Positions 2,274 to 64,000 of a stretch of DNA of 64,000 nucleotides are shown in pieces. The notes beneath the pieces were generated by a model that saw only the letters and a program-made list of their open reading frames with translations, was not told the origin of the DNA and did no database searches. The number at the start of each line of letters is the position of its first letter. The first letter of the stretch is position 1. Origin of the DNA: a virus; IMG/VR virus record IMGVR_UViG_3300050343_000256, positions 1-64,000 of that record; one strand, 5' to 3'. The position numbers and the translations under genes were made by a program.

Positions 2274-2367
2274 CCCACCTATCCCCTCATTAGCTCCGGC
2301 TGGTGGGGGGATTTTTAATGCACCACTACAACGGTGCGTTTCAGTTCATTACTTCGCTTGATTACTC

Positions 2368-2859
2368 ATGACCACCAAAACTGACCTCGAAGCACAAGTC
2401 GCTCAACTTCAGGAACAACTGGCTGCTGCCCAGGCTGCAACGCCAGACTCTGCTCCTCGCCTGCCCGGTTTCGCCGGTCGTGTCTGGCTTCCTGAAAATA
2501 TTGACGAGGTTGTAACCAACCAAGATGGAACCACCTGGCAACCCGTCAAATACGGTACAACCAGGAACGGCTCCCGCTATTTCGAATGGAAGGCTCAAGT
2601 CTCTCATTTTGATAAGGAGACCAACAAGCGGATCTACTCCAAGACCCGAATTCCTTTCAAAGCCTGGAACGAACAAGCTAATCAGATCATGAACATGATC
2701 AAAGATGGCACCCGCCTTGTCGACATTACTGCCAACTACCTTCCAGAAGCTTGGTCTTACGAGGGCAAGGTTTACAGCAGGGATTTTTGGCACGTCGTCT
2801 CGGTCGATCCTTTCGTCCGTGATGAAGTAACCGAAGTCCAAGGCGAACTCAACGCTTGA
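2368..2859 (+). CDS. putative SSB-like OB-fold protein
   Basis: IPFKAWNEQANQI...DGTRLVDITA resembles the SSB pattern AW..qA..i...G..V.i. Confidence 0.45.
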   Translation: MTTKTDLEAQVAQLQEQLAAAQAATPDSAPRLPGFAGRVWLPENIDEVVTNQDGTTWQPVKYGTTRNGSRYFEWKAQVSHFDKETNKRIYSKTRIPFKAWNEQANQIMNMIKDGTRLVDITANYLPEAWSYEGKVYSRDFWHVVSVDPFVRDEVTEVQGELNA

Positions 2860-2961
2860 CACATCAGCCCTGCCCTTCACCGGGTGGGGCTTTTTTAGTG
2901 CACCAACACAACGGTGCCACAAACTATTTATCAACCTGTTCACCTTATTAACGTAAATCAA

Positions 2962-3246
2962 ATGACTATTGCCATCCCACAATTGAACATCCAAGACCAG
3001 GCTTACTCTCTCATCGACACACTCAAAGAGATCAACTATCGCAAGCACTATGAGCAAACAATTTCTACCATCTTGCTCATCGCTGCCTGGATAGTTGTCA
3101 TCGCCCAAACCATCTACAAAGGCTGGCAATTCGCCGCCCCTCACATCATCAATGGCGCTCGCCAACTAGCCAACTTCATCGAATCACTTGACGACTCGCC
3201 GCCGCCCATACCACTGATACCGGAGACAGACAAAATCCCCTTTTAG
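2962..3246 (+). CDS. hypothetical membrane protein
   Basis: One transmembrane-like segment; lies between box 7 and a terminator. Confidence 0.6.
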   Translation: MTIAIPQLNIQDQAYSLIDTLKEINYRKHYEQTISTILLIAAWIVVIAQTIYKGWQFAAPHIINGARQLANFIESLDDSPPPIPLIPETDKIPF

Positions 3247-3334
3247 ATCCCAACACTCCCTCTACCCCTGCCCTACCGGGTGGGGGTTTTTTATTGCACC
3301 ACTTCAACGGTGCATTTACTTCGCTAGTTCCTTC

Positions 3335-3523
3335 ATGGCTCTTACACACATCAGTATTCCTCTGTTCGACGCCGCAGTCCAACTCGAGGAGGTCTATACC
3401 GATCACAAGGCTCAAACCTTGACCATCGAGCAAGAAGAGATCCTTGCAGAAGATGCATATCACAAGAGGACAAGCCATGAAAGAAGCTGTGCCCACCTCA
3501 TGGGCAATCAATCAAGCTTCTGA
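3335..3523 (+). CDS. hypothetical protein
   Basis: ORF between box 8 and a terminator. Confidence 0.6.
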   Translation: MALTHISIPLFDAAVQLEEVYTDHKAQTLTIEQEEILAEDAYHKRTSHERSCAHLMGNQSSF

Positions 3524-3618
3524 ATCACGCTCTCCTTACAACGTCGTCTTCTGACGCTTACCCCTGCCGGTACTGCCGGTGGGGGTTTTTTTCGTACAAC
3601 AACTATGCATTACTAACC

Positions 3619-4140
3619 ATGGGAACACGTTCAGCTATCGGCCACGAATTACCGTCCGGCAAGATCAAAGCCGTCTACTGCCACTGGGATGGCTATCCCA
3701 AGCACCATCTGCCAATTCTGATCAAGCACTACAACACGCTCGAGAAAGCAAAGGCACTTATCAAGCCAGGCTCCATGTCCACACTTAGGACCAGAGAAAC
3801 CTGGAACTGCGGCCCTCGACTCAAATACAACGAGACCTATCTCCAGGACCCTGAAGGACTACAGATGTTTCAAGGCGACAGGGAGCCGCAACCCCTGTAC
3901 CACCACGAACGTGGAGATGGTCCCTGGAATGCAACCGACTCCGACTACGCAGATCCACCACATGTGAACGCATCACTCAAGGCTGCCCGTAAATGGTGGG
4001 CTGACTCTTGCTGCGAGCACATGTACATCTTCGAGATCAACGTCGGCTGGATTCACTACGACCTGAACGAACCTGAGCCCAAGCACAAGTTCACCAAGGT
4101 CAGTCAACTTCTATGTAACCAAATAGATCAAAGCCCATAG
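3619..4140 (+). CDS. conserved phage early protein (MGTRS.IG...YCHWDGYP family)
   Basis: Recognisable widespread phage motif of unknown function. Confidence 0.75.
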   Translation: MGTRSAIGHELPSGKIKAVYCHWDGYPKHHLPILIKHYNTLEKAKALIKPGSMSTLRTRETWNCGPRLKYNETYLQDPEGLQMFQGDREPQPLYHHERGDGPWNATDSDYADPPHVNASLKAARKWWADSCCEHMYIFEINVGWIHYDLNEPEPKHKFTKVSQLLCNQIDQSP

Positions 4141-4147
4141 ACTCACC

Positions 4148-4354
4148 TCAGGTTGGTAAGTCCAGGCAATAACCAGACATCCCGTACTCAGGCTCACTGT
4201 TCTCTGGCGCCATCTCATTAAAGTCAGAAACGAGTGACCTGGGTATCAACTTATCCCTACGGAATGCCCTACGCATTTCGTTCAAGTTGAAAGGCGACAG
4301 CCCATCACGGATATCTAATTCCAACTCCGTCCCGGCCAGTCTGAAATCATCCAT
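4148..4354 (-). CDS. hypothetical protein with N-terminal RLAG
   Basis: MDDFRLAG; overlaps the end of 4347-4550. Confidence 0.6.
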   Translation of the reverse strand: MDDFRLAGTELELDIRDGLSPFNLNEMRRAFRRDKLIPRSLVSDFNEMAPENSEPEYGMSGYCLDLPT

Positions 4355-4550
4355 CGATCAATTTCTCAAGCTTGGCCTTGCCAACAATTGTCTCTCCCTG
4401 CTGGTAGTAAAAGCTGTCGGTCTTCCCGGCAGCCTTTAATGCCTTGCAAATGCTTACCCATTTATCAGCTTCCGTATCAACCCAAAGACCCTTATGTAAT
4501 TCATCAGGACTACTCAAGAAATCATCAGTCATCAGGCTGAACAATCTCAT
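4347..4550 (-). CDS. small cyanophage hypothetical protein
   Basis: W..I..AL..AGKTDSFYY pattern. Confidence 0.6.
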   Translation of the reverse strand: MRLFSLMTDDFLSSPDELHKGLWVDTEADKWVSICKALKAAGKTDSFYYQQGETIVGKAKLEKLIDG

Positions 4551-4673
4551 GTTCTTCGCACAATCTAATGCACTCCTTCACAAGCGCATAGTACGAACTA
4601 TCAGTTTTATGACCTTCTTCCAGAGTCAATACAACCCTGGAATACAAGTCACATTCCCACTGCTGGGGAGTAG

Positions 4674-5261
4674 TCATGAAGGCAATACTTGGTCGCGCTC
4701 CTGGTCAACTGCCTGGCCCTGGCTCAGGAAATTCATCAGGTCAATCAAGCCTGCTCCACTTGCAGTTACGCCTAACGAGACACCACTAACAGCGCCAACC
4801 CTGGCGATGTCTCCTTTTGTGCCTGGATCAGCAAGAGCTCCTGCTATTTGCGCTTTTGCCTGAGAAATACCTTCCCTAGTCATAATGCCTGGGCCCTCAG
4901 CACGAGCAATGGTTTCACCCATTTGCTGAAGCTGCCCACTATTCATTTGACCCATGCGCCCTAGCAAGTCCTTGGCTGCGACTTTGGACAAGCTTTCTTG
5001 ATTCAAAGGAGGCCGACCACTGGGGATGCCCATTGACTGAAAAAGGTCACGAGTGTTGTTCGCACTATCACCTCTCCTAAATGACTCTCTACGAATAATA
5101 TCTGCAGCTGCTAAAGCGCGATCGTTCTGACTACGACCCATCGTTGCTTTAAGCCGCCCTGCTTTTTCTTTGTCAGCAACCCCACCGTGCTTTGCGGCCT
5201 CATCCGCAAAATAGTTAATCATTCTCCCTCTATTGCTAGGGATTAAATCTTGTGGTCGCAC
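4674..5261 (-). CDS. hypothetical protein, possibly virion-associated
   Basis: 195-aa ORF; TAGAAT upstream on the - strand near 5290. Confidence 0.65.
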   Translation of the reverse strand: MRPQDLIPSNRGRMINYFADEAAKHGGVADKEKAGRLKATMGRSQNDRALAAADIIRRESFRRGDSANNTRDLFQSMGIPSGRPPLNQESLSKVAAKDLLGRMGQMNSGQLQQMGETIARAEGPGIMTREGISQAKAQIAGALADPGTKGDIARVGAVSGVSLGVTASGAGLIDLMNFLSQGQAVDQERDQVLPS

Positions 5262-5308
5262 GACTTAAATGAGCATTTTCTGTGTTCATTCTAGGTCGTG
5301 TTTTTTTA

Positions 5309-5328
5309 TGCCCCTCTTCAACAGTGCG
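5309..5328 (+). promoter_or_regulatory. CAAC box copy 10
   Basis: TGCCCC-TCTT-CAAC-AGTGCG after a T-tract. Confidence 0.8.
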
Positions 5329-5359
5329 TTTTAGAGGGTTTCACTTCGCTTAATGATCC

Positions 5360-5698
5360 ATGAGCTTTAAATTGCCACGTATTTGGCGCTTTCAATGCAG
5401 GTACTACAACGATCCATCTGATTTCAACAACGTCACGTTCGCTTACGTCGACGAAGACCATCTTGAAAGCGCAATTCAAGTTGGCGTTAAATCAGATCAC
5501 ATTGTCCACCAATTCGGAGAAGACAACAAAGACGACTCGTTCATCGACGAGAAAACGGGTACTACCCACTACGGCAAGTCCCACCCACTAGGCACAGTCA
5601 GCCCTCAAAGGGTGTTTGCAATCAAGAAACGCAAAGAGCGTCAAGAAGCTGAAAAGCTTGCGCATAACGCCGACATTGCTCGGCTGACCAGCACCTAA
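5360..5698 (+). CDS. hypothetical protein
   Basis: ORF after box 10, followed by a hairpin at about 5706-5736. Confidence 0.7.
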   Translation: MSFKLPRIWRFQCRYYNDPSDFNNVTFAYVDEDHLESAIQVGVKSDHIVHQFGEDNKDDSFIDEKTGTTHYGKSHPLGTVSPQRVFAIKKRKERQEAEKLAHNADIARLTST

Positions 5699-7738
5699 CC
5701 CTCTCGGCCCCGGCAGGCGTCATGCTTGCTGGGGCTTGCGCGTCTCCTATTTTCGTGCATCATATGCATGACTGGTCACACGACATGAATGCTAATCCTG
5801 AGATTTACTGCCTTCGCTCTCTCCGCCATGCAGCGGCTGAGCTCCTGGCGCTCATCGAGGCAGAAGACCCCAGCCAAGCATCCACTGGAGACAGCGAAAA
5901 AGCACGACTCATCAGTCAATTCATCCATGACGCAGACGAACGGCTTCAACTCAAGTAACCGCTACCTTCCTCAACTCTATGGCACTGACACCACTCGACT
6001 CCAGGTCACAGACAGAAAGACTGGACTTATCTGTTTGTATAAAACCAAGGATGTCTATCAACAAATTGAGATTATCAAGCATCTCAGGGATCAAAAGCCT
6101 CTGGACTTGGTCCCGTACTGCCTTATCAATCCGCAAGGCACCATCCAATCAACGCCTCGTCGACGAGCTGATTAACCACGTAAAAGTCAGACAACCGCTG
6201 CAAATTCGGTTGCATGCTCATGACGACTACCCGCAAAGAATATCTTTTGACTGCTTCGTCGATCAAAAGATTCGGGTCGTTGAACGCATGCACAAGTTTG
6301 GTGGCAATGCTTGTAAAAAGCTTGCCGCTTTCATGTTGGCTGCCGATGACACAAACCTTGAGGCCCTTATCGACTCCAAAGTTATCTTCGAGAATCTTGT
6401 CTCTAAGTACCTAGACGGTGGGATCTTCGATCGTGGAACCTGACTTCATACTCTGCGAAACGCCTAACAAATACTATTGCTTAACTCCCTTGTCGAACTT
6501 CGGCAAGGAATTAATCAAGCAATTTGAAGGCTATCCAACCCTAGGCTCCGCTCTGCTTCTCAACCAGGAGCAGAGCTTTTTAGTCAATGGACTAATTAAA
6601 CAGCTAGGGCACTCAGTCGCACAAAGAAGTTATCACCATCAGCCGATCTCAACTGACATGCCTGCTGTCAAACCTTCAGCTGCACCAACAGTTGTAAAAG
6701 ACACGCGGTACAAGTCAAGAACGCGCCACTTCACAAGCTACAGCGACAACTTCTTCCCAAACCAAAACGGATCAACAAAATGTTTATCAGACAAAGAATT
6801 ATGTGTAATCCAATCGCTTGAAAACTACCAAGTCGCTAACCCAAGGCTGATTACAGCCTCCCTTGACTCCTTTCAACTGACACCTACGAATGATTATCCC
6901 ATCAACTGCTCACACAACACAGGCTCGCCGCACACCACCAAGATCACAAGAGAAAAGATCAACTAAAAGCAAACGACCTTGCAACAGGTCAAAATCGTAA
7001 GCGAGCCTGGGCGATCCATTAAAGACTGATGGACCGGTGACTGGTATTTCTTCCGCGTAGATCACGGTCAAAGGAATGCAAGGGCAATGGCAATTAACTG
7101 CAGGAGAGGAGCAGATATCTTGGGTTCTAGAGCCATGGAATGCAATGTGCAACTTCTGCAGAAGGTTTCACTTCAACTTCATCAAAGGCGCGGTGCAAGT
7201 TGAGAATGGCTGGGCTCCAGCGCTACGTTCTTCGACAAGGATTCTTAATCCTAGAAGAGCCCGAGCCTGAGGAAGAACCCATGACTTGGTCCCAACCGGG
7301 GCAGGAAGTTCCGGTTGTCGTGCAACCCCAAACACCTAACCAAATCGTGGCTCAGGCATCAGAGCACATGATCAACAGTTGGCTGGCAGTTCGCCAGACA
7401 TATCCAAGAGTTCGCAGGTATTACAGGACTTCGATGACATCGCATTCACGTGGGAAGTCAGTTAAGGGCGCAACTGATCTCTGTCAATCGCAACTCATGA
7501 CATCAAACATCACGCATCAATCACCATCCATCTACCCAGAAGATTATCCAGGCAATGAATGGTACGACGCTGAAATCGCTTACTTAAAAAGTAAACGACC
7601 TGATCCTGACGATCTCGAGGACTCAGACGATGGGCTGTAAGCACCTAACAGTTTGAGTGGCTCGGATCTTTAACTTCCGGGCCTTTTCCTTTTCAGCTTT
7701 AAGCCGAATCATCATGTCTAAATTAATTGCTCGCATGC

Positions 7739-7846
7739 TCAGCCCACCCACCGAGAGTACGCCACTCCTCGGTACACAAAGGTCACTTCACGCAGAACAC
7801 CAGTTCCTGACTGGCGACCAGAAGCTTGCCACTTACGTGTCGACAT
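7739..7846 (-). CDS. DUF4278-like microprotein
   Basis: FVYRGVAY motif. Confidence 0.5.
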   Translation of the reverse strand: MSTRKWQASGRQSGTGVLREVTFVYRGVAYSRWVG

Positions 7847-7943
7847 CTGAAGTCTCTCAAACAGCAACGCCCCCGTCGTATGGCGCTGATGGTTGCGGCT
7901 ATTAAGCCCGACGATTTCTACAACTCTAACAACATTAATTCCA

Positions 7944-8240
7944 ATGATTGCCAAGCTTCATCCCAGGTTCACGATGCTCACAGACGCAAGTCACAAATGG
8001 GTCAAAGTCAGGAAGTCATACCTAGAAGACTTAATTGGCAATGACTGGCGCAAGTACTTCACTTGCTCTAGCTACGAAAGAACTGACTTTGTCTACCTCG
8101 AGGAACAGAAAGACACGGTTACCTTTTTAAAGGAATGCCGCAAGAAAGACATCCACCCTGAGTTTGTCTGCGCCGAACACAAAACAGATCGACCCTCAAA
8201 GATTCGCGGCTACGAACCCTTGGCTCCCATGGATTTATGA
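7944..8240 (+). CDS. conserved phage hypothetical protein (D.sH.W.kV...YLEE.D family)
   Basis: TDASHKWVKV...VYLEEQKD. Confidence 0.7.
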   Translation: MIAKLHPRFTMLTDASHKWVKVRKSYLEDLIGNDWRKYFTCSSYERTDFVYLEEQKDTVTFLKECRKKDIHPEFVCAEHKTDRPSKIRGYEPLAPMDL

Positions 8241-8818
8241 CTTCATCACAAACAGACCAGTCGTTTGTCAAAGATCTATTTGACACATTATTTGGGACCG
8301 TCGATACAGAAATGATCGACCTGTCCGATGACGACACGGCTGGCATTGAAGCTATTGACCTCGAAAAACTAGTCGTAACTGACATGACTGCATCCACTAA
8401 AGACAAGATCTCTGACGAATCAATCAGAGCAGCTCAACGCAAATTTGCCAAGGTTTACCAAGCCTTCTTCGAACAGTGGGAAACCCAGCAAGAACGTAGT
8501 GACTACGCAGACAGCGCTGGTGGTAAAGGCTGGATCGGTTCTCATTCCTGCAGTACTGCCAATGAGCACAGTTCCGTTGTTGCTTGGAGCTCAGACAGCG
8601 ACAAGATCTACACCATGGGACCCAAGTTCTACGTCGCCTTGGCGCGGTGGAACAGAAAAGCAGAGAAAGATGGATTCACTCCAATCAGATTCTCAAACTT
8701 ACACACGACTCCTTACATGCACACAAACTCAGAACGACGCCCCCTTCCCAAGGCAAGCGACTTCTGGAGTGCATTTCACGGTATCGGCGAACCACTTAGC
8801 TTCGCAATCACGTCATGA
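8237..8818 (+). CDS. hypothetical protein
   Basis: 193-aa ORF with ATGA overlaps at both ends. Confidence 0.7.
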   Translation: MTSSQTDQSFVKDLFDTLFGTVDTEMIDLSDDDTAGIEAIDLEKLVVTDMTASTKDKISDESIRAAQRKFAKVYQAFFEQWETQQERSDYADSAGGKGWIGSHSCSTANEHSSVVAWSSDSDKIYTMGPKFYVALARWNRKAEKDGFTPIRFSNLHTTPYMHTNSERRPLPKASDFWSAFHGIGEPLSFAITS

Positions 8819-9459
8819 ACCACTTAACTAAGACAATAACAATCAAGATCAAATCAAATGAACTTGAGCGAATTGATAAGGCAGCAGTAGAGCGCGGAAT
8901 TAGCCGTAGCGCTTTTATGCGTGAATGCTGCTTTAAGACCATAGAAGGGCCTCTCGCGGATAGCAACACTATTCGTTCAATTCTTCAGCGACTTGATCAC
9001 CTTGACACCCATCTACTAGCTAATGAGCTACACCTACACCACACTCCCATCACTCAGCCTGCTGAATTCAAAGTCATCAAGCTCAAGCGCAGTGGTCCCA
9101 GCCCGGTCAATCTGTTTCTTCCTGGGAAGCAGGTAAATGCCTGGCTGACGGTGGGACAAGCAGCGCGATCTCAATCTCTACAAACTTCTATGACTAACTA
9201 CACCACACCCATCACCAGCCTCAACGGCACAAGCCGTTCTGACTTGCATGAAGAATGGCTATCTGCCAGGACACTTCTGTCCCAGGCGCTAGAAGAACTG
9301 AAAGCAGCTACTTGTCATCCAAGAGACTTTCAGTTCCAAGAAAGTGGAGCTTGGGACAAAGCACAGCAAGAGAAGTCAACAGTTCTTGCATACGCAGAAG
9401 ACGCCTTGGATCTTGCGTCCGCATGGGTCGTTGCGACTCAACCTTCTAAGGAGAACTAA
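8815..9459 (+). CDS. ribbon-helix-helix (CopG-like) N-terminus in frame with a second phage domain; internal start at 9190 likely
   Basis: ITIKIKSNELERIDKAAVERGISRSAFMR; later MTNYTTPITSLNGTS...HPRDF. Confidence 0.6.
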   Translation: MNHLTKTITIKIKSNELERIDKAAVERGISRSAFMRECCFKTIEGPLADSNTIRSILQRLDHLDTHLLANELHLHHTPITQPAEFKVIKLKRSGPSPVNLFLPGKQVNAWLTVGQAARSQSLQTSMTNYTTPITSLNGTSRSDLHEEWLSARTLLSQALEELKAATCHPRDFQFQESGAWDKAQQEKSTVLAYAEDALDLASAWVVATQPSKEN

Positions 9460-10177
9460 TGAAACACTTCAAAGTCGCTTACGAGCAACGCCTCTGGATT
9501 AACGGTCACGGCTACTCAACCAGCAGGCACTTCCAAGACATCTACGCCAAAGACATGGACCGCGCCCTGGGCAAGTGGTCTAACCAACAACTCGACAATC
9601 AATCGCTGCTCTGCATTACCGAACAATCATGAACATTCATCTCATCGTCTCCGAGGCTGAGCAAATGGCCATCGTCAATGCTCTTGCTTTCTACAACGAC
9701 ATGCACATGTCGGATACAAACCGACTACTCGCTAAAGGTCACGCATTCCCCGACCTAAATCAATGGCGCACGGTCTTCACAGAAGACAATCGCGGCAACG
9801 ACTGCGAAGGCCCGATCGATCAGCTTGCTACCAAAATCGCTAACTGCGCATGACACTACATGGACTTGTCATCATTCTGAACACACACCTTATCCAACCA
9901 ACCAATGACCCTCTCAACCAACTTCATCGTTAAACTCACAGCAACAAAAGCTTCCCACAAACGTATTGGCTACGTCAACAACTCTGGTGACATAACTGAT
10001 CATATTTTTGAAGCAAGGATTTTTACTTTTAAAGAGCAAGCGCAAGCCATTGCTACTGCCTACTCAAGCAAGTCAAGCAAAGTTTCAGCTCGAGTTATCA
10101 AAGCACCTTCAGTTGGCAAGACACTTGAAAGTTTCAGTCGACACTTAGACAAATGCATTTCCACATCCAACTAACCC

Positions 10178-10513
10178 ATGGAATTCACAGATCAAGACGC
10201 TCTTGACGCGATTGCACGTCTGATGAATGGCAATGAATGGGACTCAGAACTGGTCTCCCAAATTGCTGAAATCATTCATCACACCGGTCGCCCTCTTAAA
10301 GAGCCCGTGTATTTCCACAACACCACTCTTATCCAAGACATCGAGGGCTACCTCGCAGACAACCACACCCACCTATCCGAGCAACAGATCAAAGATGTTG
10401 CCCCCACCATTCAAGGGAAGCTTTCCTATGAAGGCATCTACACCCAGATCGATTCTCTTGTCTTGTATCTTCTGGGTAACTTAGGAGATAGCGAACAGAC
10501 TCCTCCTGAATAA
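10178..10513 (+). CDS. hypothetical phage protein
   Basis: Part of a tightly packed run of small + strand ORFs (9459-10739). Confidence 0.65.
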   Translation: MEFTDQDALDAIARLMNGNEWDSELVSQIAEIIHHTGRPLKEPVYFHNTTLIQDIEGYLADNHTHLSEQQIKDVAPTIQGKLSYEGIYTQIDSLVLYLLGNLGDSEQTPPE

Positions 10514-10735
10514 CTCTGAAGCTTGCGATGCCGCCGCAATCCCGATGTACGACTTACTCGACATCGCCTGTGCTGCAATGGCTGCACTTGAATTAGACCG
10601 TATCAGCGATAAAGAACATGCTTTTAAACATGTAATGAATCGCGTTTACGGCTACATGACTCCTGCCGCCAGGGCGGACTACCAAGAGTGGGTAGAACGC
10701 AAAGGCTGGAAAGAGAAAGAGCAAATCATCCTGCC

Positions 10736-11275
10736 TTAAACGCAGCGAAGCGTGGCCTTTAAATACCACGTTGTTTTGTTGGCGTCAGCCATCAACTCGG
10801 CGAGGTAGTTGGCCACGTCCAAGGCTTTCATTTCGATTGCCTCTGGCTCCAGCTCACAGATCATCTCGCACAAATCACAAAGATTTGCGTGATAGGTCAT
10901 CAGCATGTCCCTGCCGTCATGGCTGGTGACATTGTTGAAACACGCAGGCATCTCATCCTTCAGACCACATGCACACATCGGCATGTAAAAGTCCATCGCC
11001 CGAACAAACTCAGCGATTGTGTCGAACTGTTCCTGGTGAGCTTCATACCTCTCCTTTAGGAATCCATGCACAGCAATGAAGTTTGAACCCTCATAATTCA
11101 GGTGAATCAAGTGTGACTGAGTCTGCATCTCTTTCAAGAATGAAGCCAGTCGCACTAGATCCTGAACCAATGAGGAACAAGGGACCATAGCTTTCTCGTG
11201 AGGCACCACCATTACGCCATCTAAGGCAGTCGCTGGCATGTCAGCGTTATGCATCACAAGAGAATCTCTCAACAC
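10736..11275 (-). CDS. dps: Dps/ferritin-like protein
   Basis: HLNYEGSNFIAVHGFL..RYE....FDTIAEFVRAM ferroxidase-centre pattern; W near the C-terminus. Confidence 0.85.
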   Translation of the reverse strand: MLRDSLVMHNADMPATALDGVMVVPHEKAMVPCSSLVQDLVRLASFLKEMQTQSHLIHLNYEGSNFIAVHGFLKERYEAHQEQFDTIAEFVRAMDFYMPMCACGLKDEMPACFNNVTSHDGRDMLMTYHANLCDLCEMICELEPEAIEMKALDVANYLAELMADANKTTWYLKATLRCV

Positions 11276-11505
11276 AGTTTAGTAACTACAGCTTCAGGCA
11301 AGCACCTCAACATCGCATGAAACGGGAGTCACATTTTTGAGCTCTCTATAAATCTCTATTTTGAGCTTTTGGTCTATGGACTCAGTACGAATCAAGCGCC
11401 TGACTACGGCTTGGACGGAGCTACATTCCATCTCGTAGGAAGCTTGCATAGGCGCAGGTGCCAGCAAAAGCCCTGCAATTAGAAACACTGTCATCTGTAA
11501 ATATT

Positions 11506-11554
11506 AGCTCTGCCGAAAGGTGGAGCTTTTTTTATGCACTTTTTCAACAGTGCA
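11506..11554 (+). promoter_or_regulatory. terminator hairpin plus CAAC box copy 11
   Basis: AGCTCTGCC-GAAA-GGTGGAGCT, T-tract, then TGCACT-TTTT-CAAC-AGTGCA with perfect arms. Confidence 0.85.
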
Positions 11555-11577
11555 TTTTCAATTGATTCCTTCGTTTA

Positions 11578-12243
11578 ATGACTGATTCATCCGTGCTTGA
11601 TTTCATCCCGCAAAACTCGCCCCTCAGAACACTTAATTCTCCGAAAAGCGCATTTGGCTCAAAGCTAATACAAGTAGTCCAACCTGTCATGATCTTTTTG
11701 AGCTTTGAGAGCAGGTTCTACAAAGCCGAAAAGGTCTTCAACAAACACTCAAAAACAAGAGAGTATATCCCAAATGTTCACGGAAAAATCGAAGCAGTAA
11801 CCATAGTCAACCCAAAAAACACACAGCGGGTCAATGTTCAGGGTTCCTGCCTAAACGAAGAGACAAACGAGAAGGAACGCTGGATTCTCTCCTTTTCAAC
11901 TGTGAAGAAGCAACAAACCTACCTGTCTCTTCTGCCAAAGCTAAAAGTCGTTAACTTGCCTGAACAGTCGCTCACAATTCAGCCTCGGCTTGGAAACAGA
12001 GCAACGTTCATGGATGTATTTATCAATGGGGATCCAAGGCAAAGTGTTTACGCAAAGTCGATTGACTGCAGTGATAACGCACTCAACGAGACAGTTAACG
12101 CAATTAGGGAGCAGCTGGGTCTCCAACCGGAGTACCCAGAATGGATGAATCTAAGGACGGATCTTTCCCAGACTCAATCAGTCCCAACCAACTGCGAGAC
12201 CTACTCGGAAGAGCCGGAATCCAGCTCCCAGTCTCAGATCTGA
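11578..12243 (+). CDS. hypothetical protein
   Basis: 221-aa ORF after box 11. Confidence 0.7.
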   Translation: MTDSSVLDFIPQNSPLRTLNSPKSAFGSKLIQVVQPVMIFLSFESRFYKAEKVFNKHSKTREYIPNVHGKIEAVTIVNPKNTQRVNVQGSCLNEETNEKERWILSFSTVKKQQTYLSLLPKLKVVNLPEQSLTIQPRLGNRATFMDVFINGDPRQSVYAKSIDCSDNALNETVNAIREQLGLQPEYPEWMNLRTDLSQTQSVPTNCETYSEEPESSSQSQI

Positions 12244-12704
12244 TCCCCAGGCTGAGCTTCAAAGACAGCAAGCTCGATAGTGGCGGTATCTGCGATTTGC
12301 AGTACGTCATTATCCAGCTCATTCAAAACTCAGAGGACGGGGTTGAGTTCATTCAGCTCTTGACCCTGGCTCTCTACATGAGTGAGCTGTGTTTCACAGC
12401 CATGGAGGGCTCCATCGACGAAGCCAACGAGCTGTACGAAGGAGCAGACAAACTGAGCGTCATCAAAGAGCTTGTAAGCCTTCGGGACTCATTTAAGCGT
12501 TCATTGAGCGAACTCTCGACGATCCATCTAACCCTGATGGCATCAGCAACGTTCGATCGGATCAACCGACTACGCCCATCACTAGGCAGCGCAGCAGGAC
12601 AGAAGGACTTCCATTCCCATCTGCTTCTCAGCGATGCATTACTCGAATCACTAAAACAAACCCGCAAAGACGCGGAACCATTTCTCGACGCAAACCAACC
12701 ATGA
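12141..12704 (+). CDS. hypothetical helical protein
   Basis: 187-aa ORF with ATGA overlap to the next gene. Confidence 0.6.
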   Translation: MDESKDGSFPDSISPNQLRDLLGRAGIQLPVSDLIPRLSFKDSKLDSGGICDLQYVIIQLIQNSEDGVEFIQLLTLALYMSELCFTAMEGSIDEANELYEGADKLSVIKELVSLRDSFKRSLSELSTIHLTLMASATFDRINRLRPSLGSAAGQKDFHSHLLLSDALLESLKQTRKDAEPFLDANQP

Positions 12705-13693
12705 CGATCACCCTCGACCGCAAACTCTTCAAAGGCAACGCAGCTCTTGTTGCTCCTGGCTCAAGCACGACCGAAATCCTTGAATCGGTAGATGCCAACT
12801 TCAACGTCAACGCCGTATCCCCCGAGTTTGGAGGTCGCACCTACAACGACTACAAGCTGTGGCTTCGTTCAGATAACGGCGACTCACTCGGCCAATTCGG
12901 CAACAGAAGGCAGCCGCAAGACCCTCAGGTCATTGGGGACTTCTTCCAAAGCTTCTGCGACAACTCTGAAAAACGCATCTCCTTAGATGTTGTTGGCTCG
13001 ATCAATAAGGGCAAGACCCTTTATATGGCAAGCCGATTGGCTGGTGACACCACACAGCTAAACGATCCGACAGACCTCAGAGGTATGGCGATCAAACGCG
13101 AGGACAGCGAGCACTACATCGCTCGAGCCGATCGCACTGAACACTGGCTCATGCTTCTCGTCCACTACGGCGAAAGCCTCTCAACCAAAGCGGTTGTGTT
13201 CAGCAATGAGCTGGTCTGCACCAATGGCATGGCTCTCAAGACCGTCGACAAATCAATGGTGATTCCGCACCGGTCCTTAGCTGACGGCTTCCAAGTCGAG
13301 CAGATCCTCAACCAAGGCCTCCGCAGCAGCCAGGCCTACATGCTGATGAAAAACCGCTTTCAAAACGAACCACTTCAAATTGCTGATGGCTGCAGTCTCA
13401 TTCGAGAATTCCACGACGATCCAGAAGGCGATAGCCAGGTCGTCAAGAACCTCGAGCGCATCTACCGCTATGGATTAATCGGCGGCGATCTACCAGAACG
13501 CACCAACAACTTCTGGCGTCTTGCAAATGCACACACCCAATACACTTCGCACTCCTATGTGAGCAAGGCTGACCCAGGCAAGACTCTTCTGTCTCAACTG
13601 GAAGGCAGCAAAGCAAGAAGCAACAGGGATTGGATGCAGTTCCTTGAGTCTCAATTCACAGCTGGCGCCGACAGAACCTTAGTCCTCGCCTGA
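12701..13693 (+). CDS. DUF932-family phage/plasmid protein
   Basis: LRSDNG..LG....R.P; LVCTNGM; N.WRL.NA.TQY.SH. Confidence 0.8.
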   Translation: MTITLDRKLFKGNAALVAPGSSTTEILESVDANFNVNAVSPEFGGRTYNDYKLWLRSDNGDSLGQFGNRRQPQDPQVIGDFFQSFCDNSEKRISLDVVGSINKGKTLYMASRLAGDTTQLNDPTDLRGMAIKREDSEHYIARADRTEHWLMLLVHYGESLSTKAVVFSNELVCTNGMALKTVDKSMVIPHRSLADGFQVEQILNQGLRSSQAYMLMKNRFQNEPLQIADGCSLIREFHDDPEGDSQVVKNLERIYRYGLIGGDLPERTNNFWRLANAHTQYTSHSYVSKADPGKTLLSQLEGSKARSNRDWMQFLESQFTAGADRTLVLA

Positions 13694-13722
13694 AGCATCA
13701 GGCAAATAAAACAGAAAACACC

Positions 13723-13755
13723 GCATGAGGGGGTTGCGCACCCCCTTTTTCATGT
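13723..13755 (+). terminator. intrinsic terminator
   Basis: AGGGGGT-loop-ACCCCCT followed by a T-run. Confidence 0.6.
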
Positions 13756-13900
13756 GCAAAATGCGTGCTCAGTCTTTCGACATCATCCTTGTGCTTCCCA
13801 CCAGCCATGCAACGTATGACCAGCAGAAACAGTGAACGCCTACTTGGTGTGTCAGTCCTGATTGCCTCCCTCACAGCATTCTTTGTCAGCCCTTGGCCTA

Positions 13901-14302
13901 ATGACCGCATCATTCTTCAACAAAGAGAACGCTCAACTCAGGAGGTGTACTCAATGCGGATCGATGAAGGTGTTCGTAGTCGAATGCAGACACAGTTCGA
14001 TATACGGACTTGACGCAAAAGCGAGACGTCGTCGTCTTAAATGCCAAAAATGCGGCCATCGAAGTACGACAAAAGAAATAAGCAAGGACTTGTTAGATCA
14101 TCTAATTGGATGTCACCGAAATCTTGAAAAGATTAAGGCACTAACACTTGCGCAATCAACCAGCAAAGCGTCGCCCCCCAGGTCGTTATGCAGAAACTGC
14201 ATCTTCAATGAGAACCATAGCTGTTCATTGGAACTGCCTGAGTTCAAAACGAAGGAATCAGCGGATTGCTCCATGCATCAATACATACCAACATCATCAT
14301 GA
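13901..14302 (+). CDS. NrdR-like zinc-ribbon protein
   Basis: CTQCG...VVECR...RRRRLKCQKCGHRSTTKE plus a second Cys cluster; no ATP-cone. Confidence 0.7.
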   Translation: MTASFFNKENAQLRRCTQCGSMKVFVVECRHSSIYGLDAKARRRRLKCQKCGHRSTTKEISKDLLDHLIGCHRNLEKIKALTLAQSTSKASPPRSLCRNCIFNENHSCSLELPEFKTKESADCSMHQYIPTSS

Positions 14303-14379
14303 AAACAAAGACCACTGGTAACAAGTTTCGACCAACACGTCTTCTCGCGAGAACGTGCCATAACTGCAGGGTCAGGCTC

Positions 14380-14460
14380 ATGAAAACACGACCAAGACAA
14401 GCATCTGGAGCTACCAAGTTCTTGGTGTACAGAGGACTGAGGTACGAGTGGAAGCCATGA
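14380..14460 (+). CDS. DUF4278-like microprotein (start uncertain)
   Basis: FLVYRGLRYE. Confidence 0.45.
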   Translation: MKTRPRQASGATKFLVYRGLRYEWKP

Positions 14461-15025
14461 GAAGTCTTCACTACCACAAGAACTCAGAAACGATCATTGC
14501 CGAGGCTAAATTCAAAGCCCTTGAGGCAATACGCAAAAACGATCCGACTCAACTAACTAAACTACAACGTGCTTTTTACGATGCCAATCACCCAGACTCA
14601 AGGTCACCAGTACACGGAACGTGTCGTCAGCACACAAATCAGAGGCCTTCTATCCGCTGCCAGGGAGTACATAAACCAAAAAGATGTAAAACCAACTGAG
14701 CATATAGACCAAACCGATAGAAGCAAAGGAGGCGCACGATGAGCCACGAGACAGTAAGGCTGCAAAAACTAGAAGAGCAAATGAAGTCCTTGGCATACGA
14801 ATTCGCCAACATCAAAGAGACACACAACTACAACGTCAAAAGATATACCTGGATATCAGAGAAGTGCGACAGGATACAGAAAGAGTTTGACGAGCTCAAA
14901 AAAGGTGACAGCAACCTAGAAACCGTTTAACCGCTTTCCACTGAGATAGCTACCCCGCCGAAAGGTGGGGTTTTTAAATGCTGTATTTCATTTACTAAAA
15001 TGGATAAATCTATTCTCTCCAGGCA

Positions 15026-15613
15026 ATGACATTCAGACTAGCTGGAGAAGCTGTTAATACTCCTCGGGAAGTCTTAGTAGCCGCTACTCCAATGGAGATG
15101 AGAGGATTGCTAGATGACTTCACGAATGAAACCATTAAAGGCAATATCTCTCCCGATGCATTTACTAGTGGTTTATTGACACTAGGCGAAGCCGGACACT
15201 CGCCTAATTTTACAGCTCGCCAAATCAAGAATACATTGAAAAATCCTTTAGCAAGAATGTTAGTAGAAAGCCCTGGCATGGCCAAGCAAATGGCAGAAAG
15301 CTCGGTTGGGCTTTTGGATCAGTTTGGAATTAATAGCGACGCAGCTAAAAGCTATATCGGCCCTGGCATGAAATTGCTAACACAAGCAAAGAAAGATGGA
15401 ATCCTTAAGTCAGACGTAACTGACGAAGAGGTTGCTCGGGAGATTCAACGTCCGCTTCACTCAGCCCTCCAAAGCTGGCATAAAGATAATAAAGATAATC
15501 AACAACTACACGACTATCTAGGCTCCGAAAATCCTGGCTGGAATCCGACAGGTCAGGAAGGGCCTATCACGAGGCAAGAAGCCTTGATGATTCCCTTCCT
15601 TAAAGGATATTAA
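15026..15613 (+). CDS. hypothetical protein with N-terminal RLAG
   Basis: MTFRLAG; preceded by a terminator hairpin and TAAAAT rather than a CAAC box. Confidence 0.7.
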   Translation: MTFRLAGEAVNTPREVLVAATPMEMRGLLDDFTNETIKGNISPDAFTSGLLTLGEAGHSPNFTARQIKNTLKNPLARMLVESPGMAKQMAESSVGLLDQFGINSDAAKSYIGPGMKLLTQAKKDGILKSDVTDEEVAREIQRPLHSALQSWHKDNKDNQQLHDYLGSENPGWNPTGQEGPITRQEALMIPFLKGY

Positions 15614-15637
15614 AGGTCTTAATTAATATTTTTTTTA

Positions 15638-15682
15638 ACCCGCCGGAAGGTGGGTTTTTTTGTGCCCTCTTTCAACGGTGCA
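15638..15682 (+). promoter_or_regulatory. terminator hairpin plus CAAC box copy 12
   Basis: AACCCGCC-GGAA-GGTGGGTT, T-tract, then TGCCCT-CTTT-CAAC-GGTGCA. Confidence 0.85.
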
Positions 15683-15684
15683 TT

Positions 15685-16335
15685 TTGAATTCTCATCTCA
15701 AGCTGAACTCTGGTAATCGAAAAACCGGACCAATCGCTGTATCAACAACCAGCTGGGAAAGCTGCAATAGATCCTGTGGAGCATGGGACGATTGCTACGC
15801 ACGCAAGGGCTACTACACGAAGTTGCATGGAGACAAAGTTACCAATGGTGATAGAGGAACATCTCCAGATCACTTCATCAAACAAGTCTCCGCTATCAGA
15901 CCAGGCAATATGTTTCGCCACAACGTCGGTGGCGATTTATGGCATATCAACAATGTCATTGATAAGCCTTTGCTCAACAAATTAATAGCGGCTGTTCAGC
16001 ATTTATCCCATGCCTGGACGTACACACACCACGTACTTACCGCACAAAACCTGCTCTCTATACGGTGGGCGAACAAGTCGGGCTTCACGATCAACGTCTC
16101 TGTTGAATCAGAAGCAATAGCAGCGAAGCGGTTCAAGCAGGGTTTACCCGTGTGCTGCATCACTCAAGGGAAGCCTGAGTCATTTACTAGCCATGGCGTT
16201 CAGTTCAAACGCTGCGAGCACCAGCTTGACGGCGTTCCGAAAGACCAAAGAACACAATGCATTGGCTGCGGTAACGGAAACCCATTGTGCTCGCAAGCCG
16301 ATCGAGATTTTGTAATCGCTTTCGAACTGCACTGA
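15685..16335 (+). CDS. conserved Cys-rich phage protein (Gp88/DUF7227-like)
   Basis: SGNRKTGPIAVSTT...C..SC.....CYA; RHNVGGD; WTYTH; C..C.....C. Confidence 0.7.
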   Translation: MNSHLKLNSGNRKTGPIAVSTTSWESCNRSCGAWDDCYARKGYYTKLHGDKVTNGDRGTSPDHFIKQVSAIRPGNMFRHNVGGDLWHINNVIDKPLLNKLIAAVQHLSHAWTYTHHVLTAQNLLSIRWANKSGFTINVSVESEAIAAKRFKQGLPVCCITQGKPESFTSHGVQFKRCEHQLDGVPKDQRTQCIGCGNGNPLCSQADRDFVIAFELH

Positions 16336-21614: not shown

Positions 21615-21643
21615 TTGCACTCTGCAAGACAAGCTGCTAATCT
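21615..21643 (+). promoter_or_regulatory. sigma70-type promoter
   Basis: TTGCAC-17 nt-TAATCT; overlaps the GTCTTGCA/TGCAAGAC dyad. Confidence 0.6.
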
Positions 21644-21644
21644 T

Positions 21645-22030
21645 AGGGCCATCGCTACGTATATAGCGGTGACCTAGGCATCAAGGTGTCTGACAATCAC
21701 TGTGATGATCCATGCGCAGTGATTGGGGTTTGGAGTGTCTCACTCTCTTCAAGCCTTGCGAGGATTCAAGGGGCTCGCTCAGACACACGTAGTAGCTTGT
21801 GTAAGTCCTTAAGAATCAACTGCGCGTTGAAGCCATAAGTAGATAGAGGTGGTCAGTCCTCAGCCTTTATCTGCTTTGCTCAAGTAAGTCGCAAACCTTT
21901 TCATAAGTCACCAGCGTTTAGATGACTTACTTAAATAAGCAGACATACTGACAGCGAGAGCCACGCAACCGGCGACAGCAAGGAAACCCATGAGTTTTAA
22001 TGCGGGTAATCAAGGGAATATTCCCTGAAT
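21645..22030 (+). ncRNA. candidate large structured ncRNA (about 380 nt)
   Basis: No ORF of 60 aa or more; at least 8 hand-identified helices including nested ones; upstream promoter. Confidence 0.65.
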
Positions 22031-22077
22031 AATCTAGTGCAACAAAATCGTTACATTCATTAAAAGCTTCGGCGTTA

Positions 22078-35513: not shown

Positions 35514-36152
35514 CTAAAGACCTACGATCTCCCTGACACGATTCAAGACATTACCTATAGCCCCAAAGCGTTGTACCTCTTCGGGAGGGATATTTTTCAT
35601 TTTATCCATTGCCATTCTGTTCTTTCCCGCAGGTGATGAAGGCAAGTTGAGAGAAGCCCCTCCCATGTTCTGATACTGACCTCCATACACTGCTTGCAGC
35701 TCGTTAAGAGACTTGCCCCCTTGGCCGTAATACGAGGTGCCTGTTGCTGCTGTGGGGAATGATGCCCATTCCGGAGCTAAGGCATCAGCTACCCTCTCGC
35801 TCATCCCGTCACTTGTAATTACATCCAAGCCTCCCAACCCTTGTAGCCGGCGATCCGCTAACGCCAACGCAGCAATATCTTGATTGATCGGAGAGAAATC
35901 GTTGAGGCCTAGGCTTTTCGCCAAGGGCTCATATGTCGTGCTTAGGAATTGGTACGCTCCTGCCGCATCGCTAGAAAGGCCATTACCAGATTGAATAAGC
36001 CGTGGGTGCCTACTTAAATCATTAAACTTGGCACCTGTGAACATGGTGTTATAACCATCCTCCCCCGCTGTCCCTTCAGCGAACCGTATCGTTTGCAGAA
36101 GCTTTTGCCCCGCAGGAGTATTTCTAAATTGTTCGTAGTAACCCCTACTCAT
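35514..36152 (-). CDS. lambda-R-like lysozyme/transglycosylase (endolysin or virion lysin)
   Basis: TIRFAEGT; SDAAGAYQFL..T; FSP.NQD; EWASFP. Confidence 0.9.
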   Translation of the reverse strand: MSRGYYEQFRNTPAGQKLLQTIRFAEGTAGEDGYNTMFTGAKFNDLSRHPRLIQSGNGLSSDAAGAYQFLSTTYEPLAKSLGLNDFSPINQDIAALALADRRLQGLGGLDVITSDGMSERVADALAPEWASFPTAATGTSYYGQGGKSLNELQAVYGGQYQNMGGASLNLPSSPAGKNRMAMDKMKNIPPEEVQRFGAIGNVLNRVREIVGL

Positions 36153-36486
36153 TGTCTACGCCTAAAACAATTTCGTCCATGTCCAACTCCATTGTGGCAG
36201 ATTCATAGACATCCTTTATGTAATTAACAGCTTCTTCTTCTGTAGGTTCGTAGCCAAATATTGATTCCAGATCTTCCATGCTGTCAGGGGAGAAAGGATC
36301 CCTTTGCTCATCAACCCGGAAAACTATTCCAGCCCCTCTACTGAATTCCATGAAGCTCTGCTTCAGCTGAAACCTCACCTCCCAACAACCCAGCAAGGCT
36401 TCGACGAGTTCCTCCCTGTTGAGATCTTTCGCTTCTAGCTCGACCCGTTTTAGGATGAACTTCTGTTCTTGCGTTAGTTCGTACAT
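36145..36486 (-). CDS. nblA: NblA-like phycobilisome degradation protein with acidic extension
   Basis: ELTQEQKF.L..VE......NREEL...L. Confidence 0.6.
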   Translation of the reverse strand: MYELTQEQKFILKRVELEAKDLNREELVEALLGCWEVRFQLKQSFMEFSRGAGIVFRVDEQRDPFSPDSMEDLESIFGYEPTEEEAVNYIKDVYESATMELDMDEIVLGVDNE

Positions 36487-36859
36487 TTAAAGCCTCGCCG
36501 ATTGTCCAATGCGTCGAGATGGGCGCGACCCACGCGGACACCTTGTCGGCTCGCTTTTGACAAAACCAAGACGTCGACCTCCACCAATCTAAGTAATTCG
36601 GACTAGACCCTTTGGCCCGATTGCAGCGAACGCAGCATGGAACGATGTTGGTTCGAGCCCATCGGTCACCGCCCCACCTTCTGGGTAGAACGTGATCCAA
36701 TGTCATTTCCAATGTAGTGCCTTCAGAATCTTGGGATCGACCGCAGTAAGCGCATCCGTCCCAGGCATCTTTTATTGCTTGCCTATATCTTCTGATCGCT
36801 GCCCTTGGTTGCAAATCTTGCAGAGTGATTATGTACCACTCGGGATGTTCAGGCGTCAT
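36338..36859 (-). CDS. HNH endonuclease
   Basis: CAYCG; TLDHVLPR..GG; NIVPCCVRCNRAKG. Confidence 0.9.
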   Translation of the reverse strand: MTPEHPEWYIITLQDLQPRAAIRRYRQAIKDAWDGCAYCGRSQDSEGTTLEMTLDHVLPRRWGGDRWARTNIVPCCVRCNRAKGSSPNYLDWWRSTSWFCQKRADKVSAWVAPISTHWTIGEALNVRTNARTEVHPKTGRARSERSQQGGTRRSLAGLLGGEVSAEAELHGIQ

Positions 36860-36924
36860 AAGCTAGCAATAGCTATATGGCAACCCTAAATATATTTTTT
36901 AGTGAACAAAATACATCAACACCC

Positions 36925-37050
36925 AAGCTCGATTAGCCTGGGCATTCGACTTAATTCTTCCAGGTGCGGCTAAGGCCCCATCAAAACCTTGAAGTCCTTA
37001 CGGATACTTCACACCTGGAGGCTCAGAGGCTTCGCCACCCCACCGAGCTC
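36925..37050 (-). ncRNA. candidate structured ncRNA (about 125 nt)
   Basis: 9-bp closing stem and nested helices with a GNRA loop; promoter immediately upstream. Confidence 0.65.
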
Positions 37051-37054
37051 CCAA

Positions 37055-37083
37055 AGCATAGCGAGTAAGCATGCATAGTGCAA
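37055..37083 (-). promoter_or_regulatory. sigma70-type promoter
   Basis: TTGCAC-17 nt-TATGCT. Confidence 0.65.
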
Positions 37084-37096: not shown

Positions 37097-37133
37097 TAAA
37101 AAAGCCCCTCTGGTGGCGGCCAGAAGGGCTTTC
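37097..37133 (-). terminator. intrinsic terminator, possibly bidirectional
   Basis: A6-GCCC...GGGC-TTT hairpin after the OMP-like gene. Confidence 0.7.
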
Positions 37134-63501: not shown

Positions 63502-63757
63502 CAGTGTTGTTATCCCAGAAGCTCTTTATCTCCTGGTTCTCAATCTTTGTCATCGATTGAGCTCAGACTATATCTTCATCCCTGTGGGATGGAGGGCACT
63601 CGTGGATCCATTACTGAGTTTCCTCTCGGGATCTAGTCGTTGAACCTTCCAGATTGTGATCTGGCTTGGCTGCTGATTCCCCGAATGTGTGAAGGGGTCC
63701 CAGCAATTCACCCTCTGTTCACCCGGCTGTTACCAACCGAGGGCGCAAGAATCGTTT
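63502..63757 (-). ncRNA. group I self-splicing intron (256 nt, no homing endonuclease)
   Basis: P AATTGCTGGGA, Q AATCAGCAG, R TCAACGACTA, S AAGATATAGTC; exon ends in U, intron ends in G; removal restores the frame. Confidence 0.93.
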
Positions 63758-64000
63758 ACGCAGGTGCATCATTGCAGTTGGATCTGCAATGCAACGGTAA
63801 TAACCATCAGCAAAGGTTGGGACGTTGCGCTTCCGCATGTCCTTAACAACCTGCAGCAAGTCTGTCTTTACGTCAAACTTGGCTGATTCACCGGCTGCGT
63901 AGTTAAGGAACGGAGCGGCGGATGCCTTGGTTTTGCCGAGTGGGTAGTAATAACCACCAGCATTATCGCTAGCAGGACCAGCAGCTTCTGCTTTGAAAAG
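63758..64000 (-). CDS. major capsid protein, upstream exon (continues beyond the window)
   Basis: 81 open codons ...DMRKRNVPTFADGYYRCIADPTAMMHLR. Confidence 0.85.

Follow-up and report, generated by a model that had tools for sequence, protein, structure and literature searches.

The 64,000-nt stretch of DNA analysed here (the window) is the first 64 kb of the virus record IMGVR_UViG_3300050343_000256 in IMG/VR. The complete record has 84,978 bp, carries direct terminal repeats and is rated 100% complete. On the minus strand of the window, an outer-membrane-protein (OMP) gene of the Phage_OMP type is followed by a non-coding region and then by a gene for an HNH endonuclease. The non-coding region is predicted to encode a short RNA that starts with GAGCUCGG at 37050 and runs to 36905 on the minus strand, which is about 146 nt. 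From the sequence comparisons, it is firmly concluded that this is an uncatalogued conserved structured RNA with a promoter-like start and a terminator-like end, tied to one clade of HNH genes. The features of the locus are as follows, in the order in which they would be read.

37097..37129, minus strand: intrinsic terminator of the Phage_OMP gene, with the stem 37129-37120/37113-37104 and the T run 37103-37097.
37055..37083, minus strand: promoter-like site TTGCAC-17-TATGCT, with one exact match in the window where 0.02 are expected.
37021..37048, minus strand: P1, the 5' hairpin GCUCGG/CUGAGC of the minimum-free-energy (MFE) fold, with the loop GCGAAG at 37035-37030.
36960..37018, minus strand: P2 domain, with the outer stem CCAGGUGU/GCACCUGG (37018-37011/36967-36960), taken from covariation.
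36947..36959, minus strand: linker, AGAAUU and then a short variable patch, taken from the alignments A3 and A7.
36918..36946, minus strand: P3, a terminator-like 12-bp hairpin made of AAUGCCCAGGCU, the loop AAUCG and AGCUUGGGUGUU, in which 36946-36935 pairs with 36929-36918.
36905..36917, minus strand: U-rich tail GAUGUAUUUUGUU, likely the 3' end region of the short RNA, or else the -35-like part of a possible HNH promoter.
36860..36904, minus strand: proximal HNH leader, with a partial palindrome CUA...UAG (36902-36886), a TAGGGT box (36888-36883) and a hairpin beside the start codon.
36338..36859, minus strand: HNH endonuclease gene of 173 amino acids (aa) with its ATG at 36859, the constant downstream neighbour of the RNA.

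Folded as a single sequence, the RNA is only modestly better than its shuffles, two out of 200 of which do equally well (z = -2.36). Therefore, the case for it rests on relatives. A query with the HNH protein gave three IMG/VR loci at 61-64% identity, and their alignment (A1) was used for a wider retrieval. This yielded the best 80 of 151 confirmed loci from metagenomes (400 candidate stretches), the best 80 of 99 confirmed loci from IMG/VR (237 candidates) and 4 of 37 contigs from GTDB. A covariance model, R1, was built from 12 distinct sequences (alignment A4) with the window's own clade excluded. Duplicate contigs (L004, L014, L016, L085-L087), contigs already known (L170, L172) and pieces of the window's genome (L173, L174) were left out of the R1 searches, and L017 carries no DNA upstream of its HNH gene. 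R1 matched the window at 37050-36905 (minus strand) with 24.5 bits and an E value of 1.4e-4. No other match was obtained in the window or elsewhere in the 84,978-bp genome. Over all sources, 29 of 165 loci were matched (29 of 91 in one search and 0 of 74 in the other). Every one of the 29 matches lies directly upstream of the HNH gene, on its strand and at a constant spacing. The co-occurrence that the earlier note on this DNA had proposed to examine was thus found, as the RNA homologs are strictly linked to one HNH clade. The HNH proteins beside the matches are at least 58% identical to that of the window (61-78% in the RNA-bearing relatives), and R1 had no match among 133 loci with an HNH at 45% identity or less. 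All loci that have an HNH at least 58% identical and upstream DNA show the same order, namely the OMP gene, a terminator, the promoter-like box, about 105-155 nt of non-coding DNA and the HNH gene. One copy per record was found in G000-G003, including one credible copy in each of three related viral records. Pattern scans of IMG/VR for unlinked copies returned two known HNH-linked contigs only, plus the spurious L169 (high-GC) and L171 (coding). In L021, a metagenome contig of 2,060 bp, an insertion of about 750 nt with another open reading frame (ORF, 149-900) has come between the OMP gene and the RNA, which is still beside the HNH gene. The RNA of this contig has a TATTGT box and no clear -35 box. 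The RNA unit is confined to a single clade of cyanophage-like viruses, which are marine and uncultured and have records of 48-85 kb.

The strict adjacency in all 29 matches, and the RNA of L021 that stays with the HNH gene despite its separation from the OMP gene, would suit a partner or guide RNA of the nuclease, as omega-RNA or HEARO are. The earlier note had offered this possibility beside a small RNA (sRNA) and a cis-regulator. A conserved structured minus-strand RNA with a promoter-like box was borne out, and the guide or partner idea was not. We regard the latter as extremely improbable. The protein has 173 aa with the HNH domain alone: its matches are Pfam HNH_5 and HNH and the PHROG families HNH endonuclease / endonuclease VII only, and RuvC is lacking, as had been noted before. 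Rfam scans of the window gave no match to HEARO, omega-RNA or other guide-RNA families, nor to known riboswitch families. The 133 loci with more distant HNH homologs lack the RNA, yet they keep the gene and its overlapping NblA-like neighbour. Finally, the 20-nt segment of the earlier note contains a variable patch of only 5-7 nt, which is internal and has conserved flanks, and the RNA is no more complementary to the phage genome than chance would give. A control leader or a small regulatory RNA is more likely than a nuclease guide.

Across 22 distinct sequences, the conserved fold consists of three elements in a row, P1, P2 and P3. P1 is a hairpin of 4-6 bp right at the presumed start, and its loop GCGAAG is invariant in the alignment A3. 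The P2 stem, with the consensus C(C/G)AGG.../...CCU(G/C)G, encloses a hypervariable domain. It is followed by the linker, whose family consensus is AGAAUU and C(A/G)A(G/A) flanking a variable patch; AAUU and C.A are invariant or nearly so in A3 and A7, and the 5-7 nt between them vary. P3 is a hairpin of 8-12 bp with a conserved apical GGCUAA, and a U-rich stretch comes after it.

Covariation was measured on several alignments. On the unfitted A4, the 21 pairs of P1-P3 are 85.3% paired, none of 500 shuffles reaches the covariation score and slid controls give 30-45%. On A5, which was fitted to the model and is biased in its favour, the figure is 85.7%, and 16 pairs have changes on both sides. 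Pairing in P1 reaches 97% on A4 and 95% on A5, and on the latter five of its six pairs have changed on both sides. P3 is the sole helix that RNAalifold recovers on a crude alignment, and five of its seven pairs are compensatory. In the window's clade, P2 encloses a three-way junction with a UA-bulged GUAA hairpin (37010-36991) and the hairpin P2b (36990-36972). An unfitted MAFFT alignment of 10 sequences shows P2, the GUAA hairpin, P2b and P3 to be 90.9% paired with 12 compensatory pairs, and none of 500 shuffles matches the score. On the same alignment, pairing in helices 1-3 of the P2 domain is 96%, 91% and 86%, both sides have changed in 3, 3 and 2 of their pairs, and 32 of the 317 cells of the alignment are G-U pairs. 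Such cells would be A-C mismatches on the other strand, which indicates that the RNA is read from the minus strand.

The earlier note had drawn the RNA as a closed multibranch structure. Its inner helices, CCAGGUGU/GCACCUGG, the GUAA hairpin (37010-36991) and AAGG..CCUU (36990-36972), are present and covary in the 10 sequences. Its spacing was also right, as the ATG at 36859 lies about 66 nt past the proposed closing stem. The closing stem itself, GAGCUCGGU/AUCGAGCUU, together with AGCCU/AGGCU, is there in the letters of the window and fails in the relatives, which are 74.8% paired at these positions while 147-210 of 500 shuffles are as good. The two helices could form only at the expense of P1 and the upper part of P3, for which covariation is seen. 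The GGCU of P3 carries a G-to-A change in L009, which leaves P3 paired and breaks AGCCU/AGGCU. The closed drawing is thus replaced by three successive elements, since its closing stem shows no covariation. Likewise, the segment described as 20 unpaired nucleotides (36959-36940) is in part paired, its last 7 nt being the 5' strand of P3. Two further kinds of contact were tried and rejected. Pseudoknots between the P1 loop and the P3 loop and between the P1 loop and the U run, found by eye, are present in some clades, broken in others and without covariation. A long-range pairing of P1 with the HNH coding sequence occurs in MFE folds and is absent from the L018, L001 and window clades.

The central domain takes three forms in the family. 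The first is the three-way junction with a UA-bulged GNRA hairpin, seen in the window's clade, in L018/L021 (reduced) and in L042. The second is a plain hairpin, as short as 7 bp in L024. The third, in the L001 and L028 groups, consists of two unrelated hairpins without the P2 stem. In the gathering scan of the window, no Rfam family matches the RNA and only a group I intron was found, so that the expectation of novelty in the earlier note agrees with the scan. A literature search found no description of this RNA. The best Rfam resemblance is c4-2 (RF02944), at 37022-36954 (minus strand) with 33.1 bits and an E value of 3.8e-5 in a 551-nt search; its gathering score is 41. L005 reaches 27.1 bits, also below 41. 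L010 and L013 share the fold and gave no c4-2 match at E values up to 10, so it is absent in two of four close relatives tested, and none appeared in a 12-locus Rfam scan. The three-way fold with the bulged GNRA hairpin, as in c4-2, is present in the window's clade and absent from the plain-hairpin clades. Several clades swap the central domain for a 7-bp hairpin and keep P1, linker and P3, which implies a conserved function independent of that domain. Membership in c4-2 was therefore rejected: with sub-threshold scores, no match in same-fold relatives and a dispensable domain, the resemblance is one of shared shape.

A c4-type antisense immunity RNA was considered on the same evidence. Its loops would pair with the leader or ribosome site of a downstream gene, and immunity among related temperate phages would take its specificity from the hypervariable domain. 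The shared outline (33.1 bits, and 27.1 in L005), the layout of promoter, RNA and downstream genes as in the immI region of phage P1, the serine integrase of this phage and the strong difference of the central domain among clades are in keeping with it. It is nevertheless very improbable. Beside the missing and sub-threshold matches and the retention of P1, linker and P3 where a 7-bp hairpin has replaced the domain, no complementary boxes were found downstream or elsewhere in the phage genome, and Pfam and PHROG revealed no antirepressor-like gene downstream.

Signals for transcription were examined on both sides of the fold. The terminator that the earlier note had placed upstream on the minus strand is present, as a 10-bp GC-rich stem with a 6-nt loop and a T run. 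It was read from the sequence and is absent from the listing of the terminator scan. A hairpin with a T run like this one also precedes the RNA in relatives. The terminator would insulate the RNA unit from upstream transcription. The box TTGCAC-17-TATGCT at 37083-37055 (minus strand) was also confirmed as the sole exact match in the window. It agrees with the sigma-70 consensus at only 7 of 12 positions and was not listed by the promoter scan. A TAnnnT box ends 4-5 nt 5' of the RNA in all 21 distinct relatives with upstream DNA, and TTGC(A/G)(C/T) lies 17 nt upstream of it in 12 of the 21. At the other end, P3 is listed as terminator-like by the scan, and a run of at least four U begins 3-4 nt after the P3 of the model in 16 of 22 distinct sequences.

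On the same strand, the RNA is followed by the genes for HNH, an NblA-like protein, endolysin, a 117-aa protein and a 2OG-Fe(II) oxygenase. The 117-aa protein looks membrane-anchored. The endolysin gene is placed as follows.

35514-36152, minus strand: endolysin, phrog_90, E value 4.9e-31.

The order of the genes 3' of the RNA is kept in relatives. An endolysin homolog is found downstream in six of them and the membrane protein in most longer loci. On the 5' side lie the OMP gene, which ends at 37147, and a serine integrase, and the phage is probably temperate. With these genes upstream and the nuclease/lysis string downstream, the RNA stands at the border of a lysogeny/accessory block and a nuclease/lysis block.

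We tentatively favour, with less than even confidence, a leader or terminated small RNA that heads the HNH, NblA-like and endolysin genes. The host RNA polymerase would start at the conserved promoter-like site a few bases 5' of P1 and transcribe P1, the variable P2 domain and the conserved linker. It would then reach the P3 hairpin and the U run, where a large share of transcripts probably ends. By this means the unit may gate or insulate transcription into the HNH, NblA-like, endolysin and membrane-protein genes, with read-through presumably feeding the HNH operon. It may also release a stable RNA of about 130-145 nt. The reading is based on the -10 box (21 of 21), the covarying P3, the U run (16 of 22) and the OMP gene's own terminator. 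It is further based on the position of the RNA, which is always directly upstream of the HNH gene, stays with it in L021 and occurs once per record.

Several observations speak against this leader. Six of the 22 distinct sequences have no run of four U within 9 nt of P3. In the window's clade, the U run starts about 6 nt past the end of the real P3 stem, which ends earlier than that of the model, and such a distance is poor for an intrinsic terminator. All 18 distinct leaders carry a motif TT(G/C)NNN-15/16-TA(G/A)NNT at one fixed position between P3 and the ATG. This motif could be the HNH gene's own promoter, in which case read-through would be unnecessary. A search of the complete 85-kb record for antiterminators of the Q type, the only kind sought, gave none (PF06530 and PF03589, no match at E values up to 1). 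Nor was any conserved alternative pairing found by which P3 could be switched on or off. In a swap test between P1 and P3, cognate combinations gave -12.6 kcal/mol versus -11.2 kcal/mol for non-cognate ones (standard deviation 2.3), and only the L002-type group stands out, with -16 to -18 kcal/mol. A general antiterminator switch is therefore not supported, as the closing stem, the would-be antiterminator, does not covary and the swap test shows no general cognate advantage. Finally, a plain attenuator leaves the conserved P1 and the loop letters GCGAAG, AGAAUU and GGCUAA unexplained.

The proximal motif leads to the idea of a free-standing, trans-acting sRNA gene, a moron-like cassette beside the OMP gene. 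The sRNA would act on host or phage targets or on a protein, and the HNH gene would be transcribed from its own proximal promoter. This is somewhat doubtful in itself and nearly as likely as the leader, and the readings are not all mutually exclusive. The RNA has its own promoter-like box (21 of 21) and its hairpin with a U run (16 of 22), and in 18 of 18 leaders the stretch from P3 to the ATG contains a possible HNH promoter. In the window, this candidate is TTGTTC-15-TAGGGT and starts within the U-rich tail. However, its spacing of 15-16 nt is short, the motif is not recurrent (TTGNTY-14/16-TAGSNT has 4 matches in the genome versus 2.0 in shuffles) and the consensus promoter scan lists none between P3 and the HNH ATG. 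Even in distant relatives without the RNA (L031-L125), a TA(G/A/T)CGT box and then GTTGG..CAAC(T/C)GAA can be seen by eye about 22-27 nt before the HNH start, the same distance as in the RNA-bearing loci. Several of these RNA-less relatives also have a hairpin with a T run before the box, again by eye. An alignment of the P3-to-ATG region with them by MAFFT looks collinear, with the blocks GCAAG, CTTAGG, T run, TAGCGT and CAAC.GAA. Deep homology is not claimed, as nhmmer gave a best E value of about 0.9, and this lack of support for homology counts against the sRNA gene.

Targets for a free-standing sRNA were sought in the phage. Three exposed segments were compared with 431 start regions of the phage genome, and the best duplexes were within the range of shuffled segments. 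There are six perfect 11-12-nt complements of the RNA in the 85-kb genome versus about 5.5 expected by our estimate. Complementarity to start regions and to the rest of the genome is thus at chance. On the other side, the RNA occurs only where an OMP gene lies upstream, which recalls the porin gene beside IpeX in the passages available from a review (PMC12197685). The conserved loops and the swappable domain, which is able to carry a GNRA hairpin, would also suit protein binding or a tertiary fold. Neither the leader nor the free-standing sRNA explains the conserved loop letters together with the exchangeable central domain, and these two traits hint at a folded, possibly protein-bound RNA. 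A bolder proposal is that the constant scaffold of P1, linker and P3 presents a swappable central domain, so far seen in three unrelated types, that sets the partner, be it an RNA, a protein or the HNH nuclease, so that related temperate cyanophages would differ in immunity or nuclease control. We hold this to be improbable. If true, it would be the hetero-immunity principle of c4 on a new scaffold in marine viruses.

In T4-like phages, hairpins and terminators tightly control endonuclease genes. A translational mask of the same style was weighed for the present locus. Long transcripts would pair the HNH start region and be silent, while transcripts from the nested promoter would lack the pairing strand and be translated. 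The nested promoter-like arrangement is found in 18 of 18 leaders. The HNH AUG is fully paired in the MFE fold of 6 of the 18, with some upstream partners of 6-7 bp, and not fully paired in the other 12. However, its pairing probability is not above that with shuffled upstream sequence in most of the 18 leaders, the pairing register varies among clades, and P1 and P2 are left unexplained. The mask is thus distinctly unlikely, and the leader or terminated small RNA remains the reading that we favour.

The wider context of the RNA is that of a cyanophage-like virus. The OMP gene is a cyanophage marker, with a beta-barrel match to Pfam PF24653 (E value 5.4e-32). Further markers in the window are the NblA-like ORF, a large serine recombinase from the Pfam scan and the group I intron at 63539-63767 (minus strand; Rfam gathering scan, 66.8 bits, E value 9.1e-15). 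A distant-mode search of the INPHARED phages with 2 kb around the RNA site gave no match, so that the virus has no close relative there. ARAGORN found no tRNA or tmRNA. Near the end of one related IMG/VR contig, L002, a tRNA gene was seen at 81-153 (minus strand, 60.3 bits).

The HNH and NblA-like ORFs overlap in different frames, by 149 nt in the window (36338-36486, minus strand) and by about 125-150 nt across L001-L125 and L165-L168. According to the tblastn table, the pair recurs in nearly all loci with an HNH at 35-78% identity, and the NblA-like product is often better conserved than the HNH. The NblA-like ORF is absent from L126-L164, which are loci with shorter HNH matches. The contigs L165-L168 carry the phage-type pair and are binned in metagenome-assembled genomes of Phycisphaerae, Methanobacteriota and Flavobacteriales; they are probably viral contigs swept in.

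Two other places in the window show related kinds of signals. The earlier note had drawn a parallel with 21.6 kb, where the same -35 hexamer and an RNA-then-nuclease layout were said to recur. The box is there, as TTGCAC-17-TAATCT at 21615-21643 (plus strand) ahead of an exonuclease gene (phrog_298, E value 2.6e-35), and R1 finds no related RNA behind it. The looser pattern TTGCAY-N16-18-TANNNT has 3 occurrences versus 3.4 expected. About 430 nt without an ORF separate TTGCAC-17-TAATCT from the exonuclease (21615-22077, plus strand), and they have no Rfam match and are unrelated to the RNA studied here. At 440-15700 (plus strand), a repeated unit is made of a terminator hairpin, a T run and the box TGCAC...CAAC(A/G)GTGCAT directly before the next start codon. 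It was seen in 12 of 12 copies that an earlier note listed.

Among known systems, HEARO and omega-RNA resemble the present RNA in being structured and directly upstream of an HNH-domain gene. IscB, their nuclease, has RuvC and HNH domains and about 400-500 aa. In contrast, the protein here has 173 aa without RuvC, the RNA has no Rfam match and no guide-like end segment, and distant HNH homologs lack the RNA. The locus does not look like that of a new RNA-guided nuclease.

The c4 RNA of phages P1 and P7 was reportedly described by Citron and Schuster in 1990. In the immI region of P1, a downstream gene has target boxes at its ribosome site to which the c4 loops are complementary. Like c4-2 (RF02944, clan CL00128), the RNA of the window has an outer stem, a UA-bulged GNRA hairpin and a second hairpin with a 7-11-nt loop, and like c4 it is a phage-borne, promoter-proximal RNA ahead of protein genes. 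Unlike c4, its c4-2-like part is an optional insert in a larger RNA, and target boxes were not found in the phage genome. With its constant scaffold and exchangeable central domain, the RNA offers a useful natural example of modularity.

A third comparison is offered by IpeX, an RNA beside the prophage porin gene nmpC of E. coli that is made as part of the porin transcript, as far as the passages available from the review tell (PMC12197685). The likeness, within what these passages give, is that of a small RNA of about 150 nt immediately after a phage outer-membrane-protein gene. There are three differences: here the OMP gene and the RNA are set apart by a terminator and a separate promoter, the RNA follows the HNH and not the OMP gene when the two are parted (L021), and no sequence or Rfam relation was found. 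For cyanophages, the passages name only CfrI and the Rfam motifs wcaG, manA, glnA and abiF as non-coding RNAs (PMC12197685). If our reading holds, an uncatalogued structured RNA family is added to the few known from cyanophages. Its position is a regulatory one, between the serine integrase/OMP genes and the genes for a nuclease, a phycobilisome-degradation-like protein and an endolysin.

The late promoter PR' of lambdoid phages is followed by a short terminated '6S' RNA and the terminator tR'. StxS of Stx phages is said, after Sy, Lan and Tree, to be a functional form of such a terminated late-promoter RNA. To our knowledge, the body of the lambda leader is not noted for conservation or covariation. 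The RNA described here differs in that both conservation and covariation are seen in its body (P1, P2 and the loop letters), that no Q-type antiterminator gene was found and that the first downstream gene is an HNH nuclease. At the level of the letters, however, the plan is the same as that of PR'/tR' and StxS: a promoter is followed at once by a short structured RNA with a hairpin and a U run at its end, directly ahead of the lysis genes of a probably temperate phage, and the terminated product can itself be a stable RNA. If our reading holds, this RNA would provide a handle on how probably temperate marine cyanophages time their nuclease and lysis genes.

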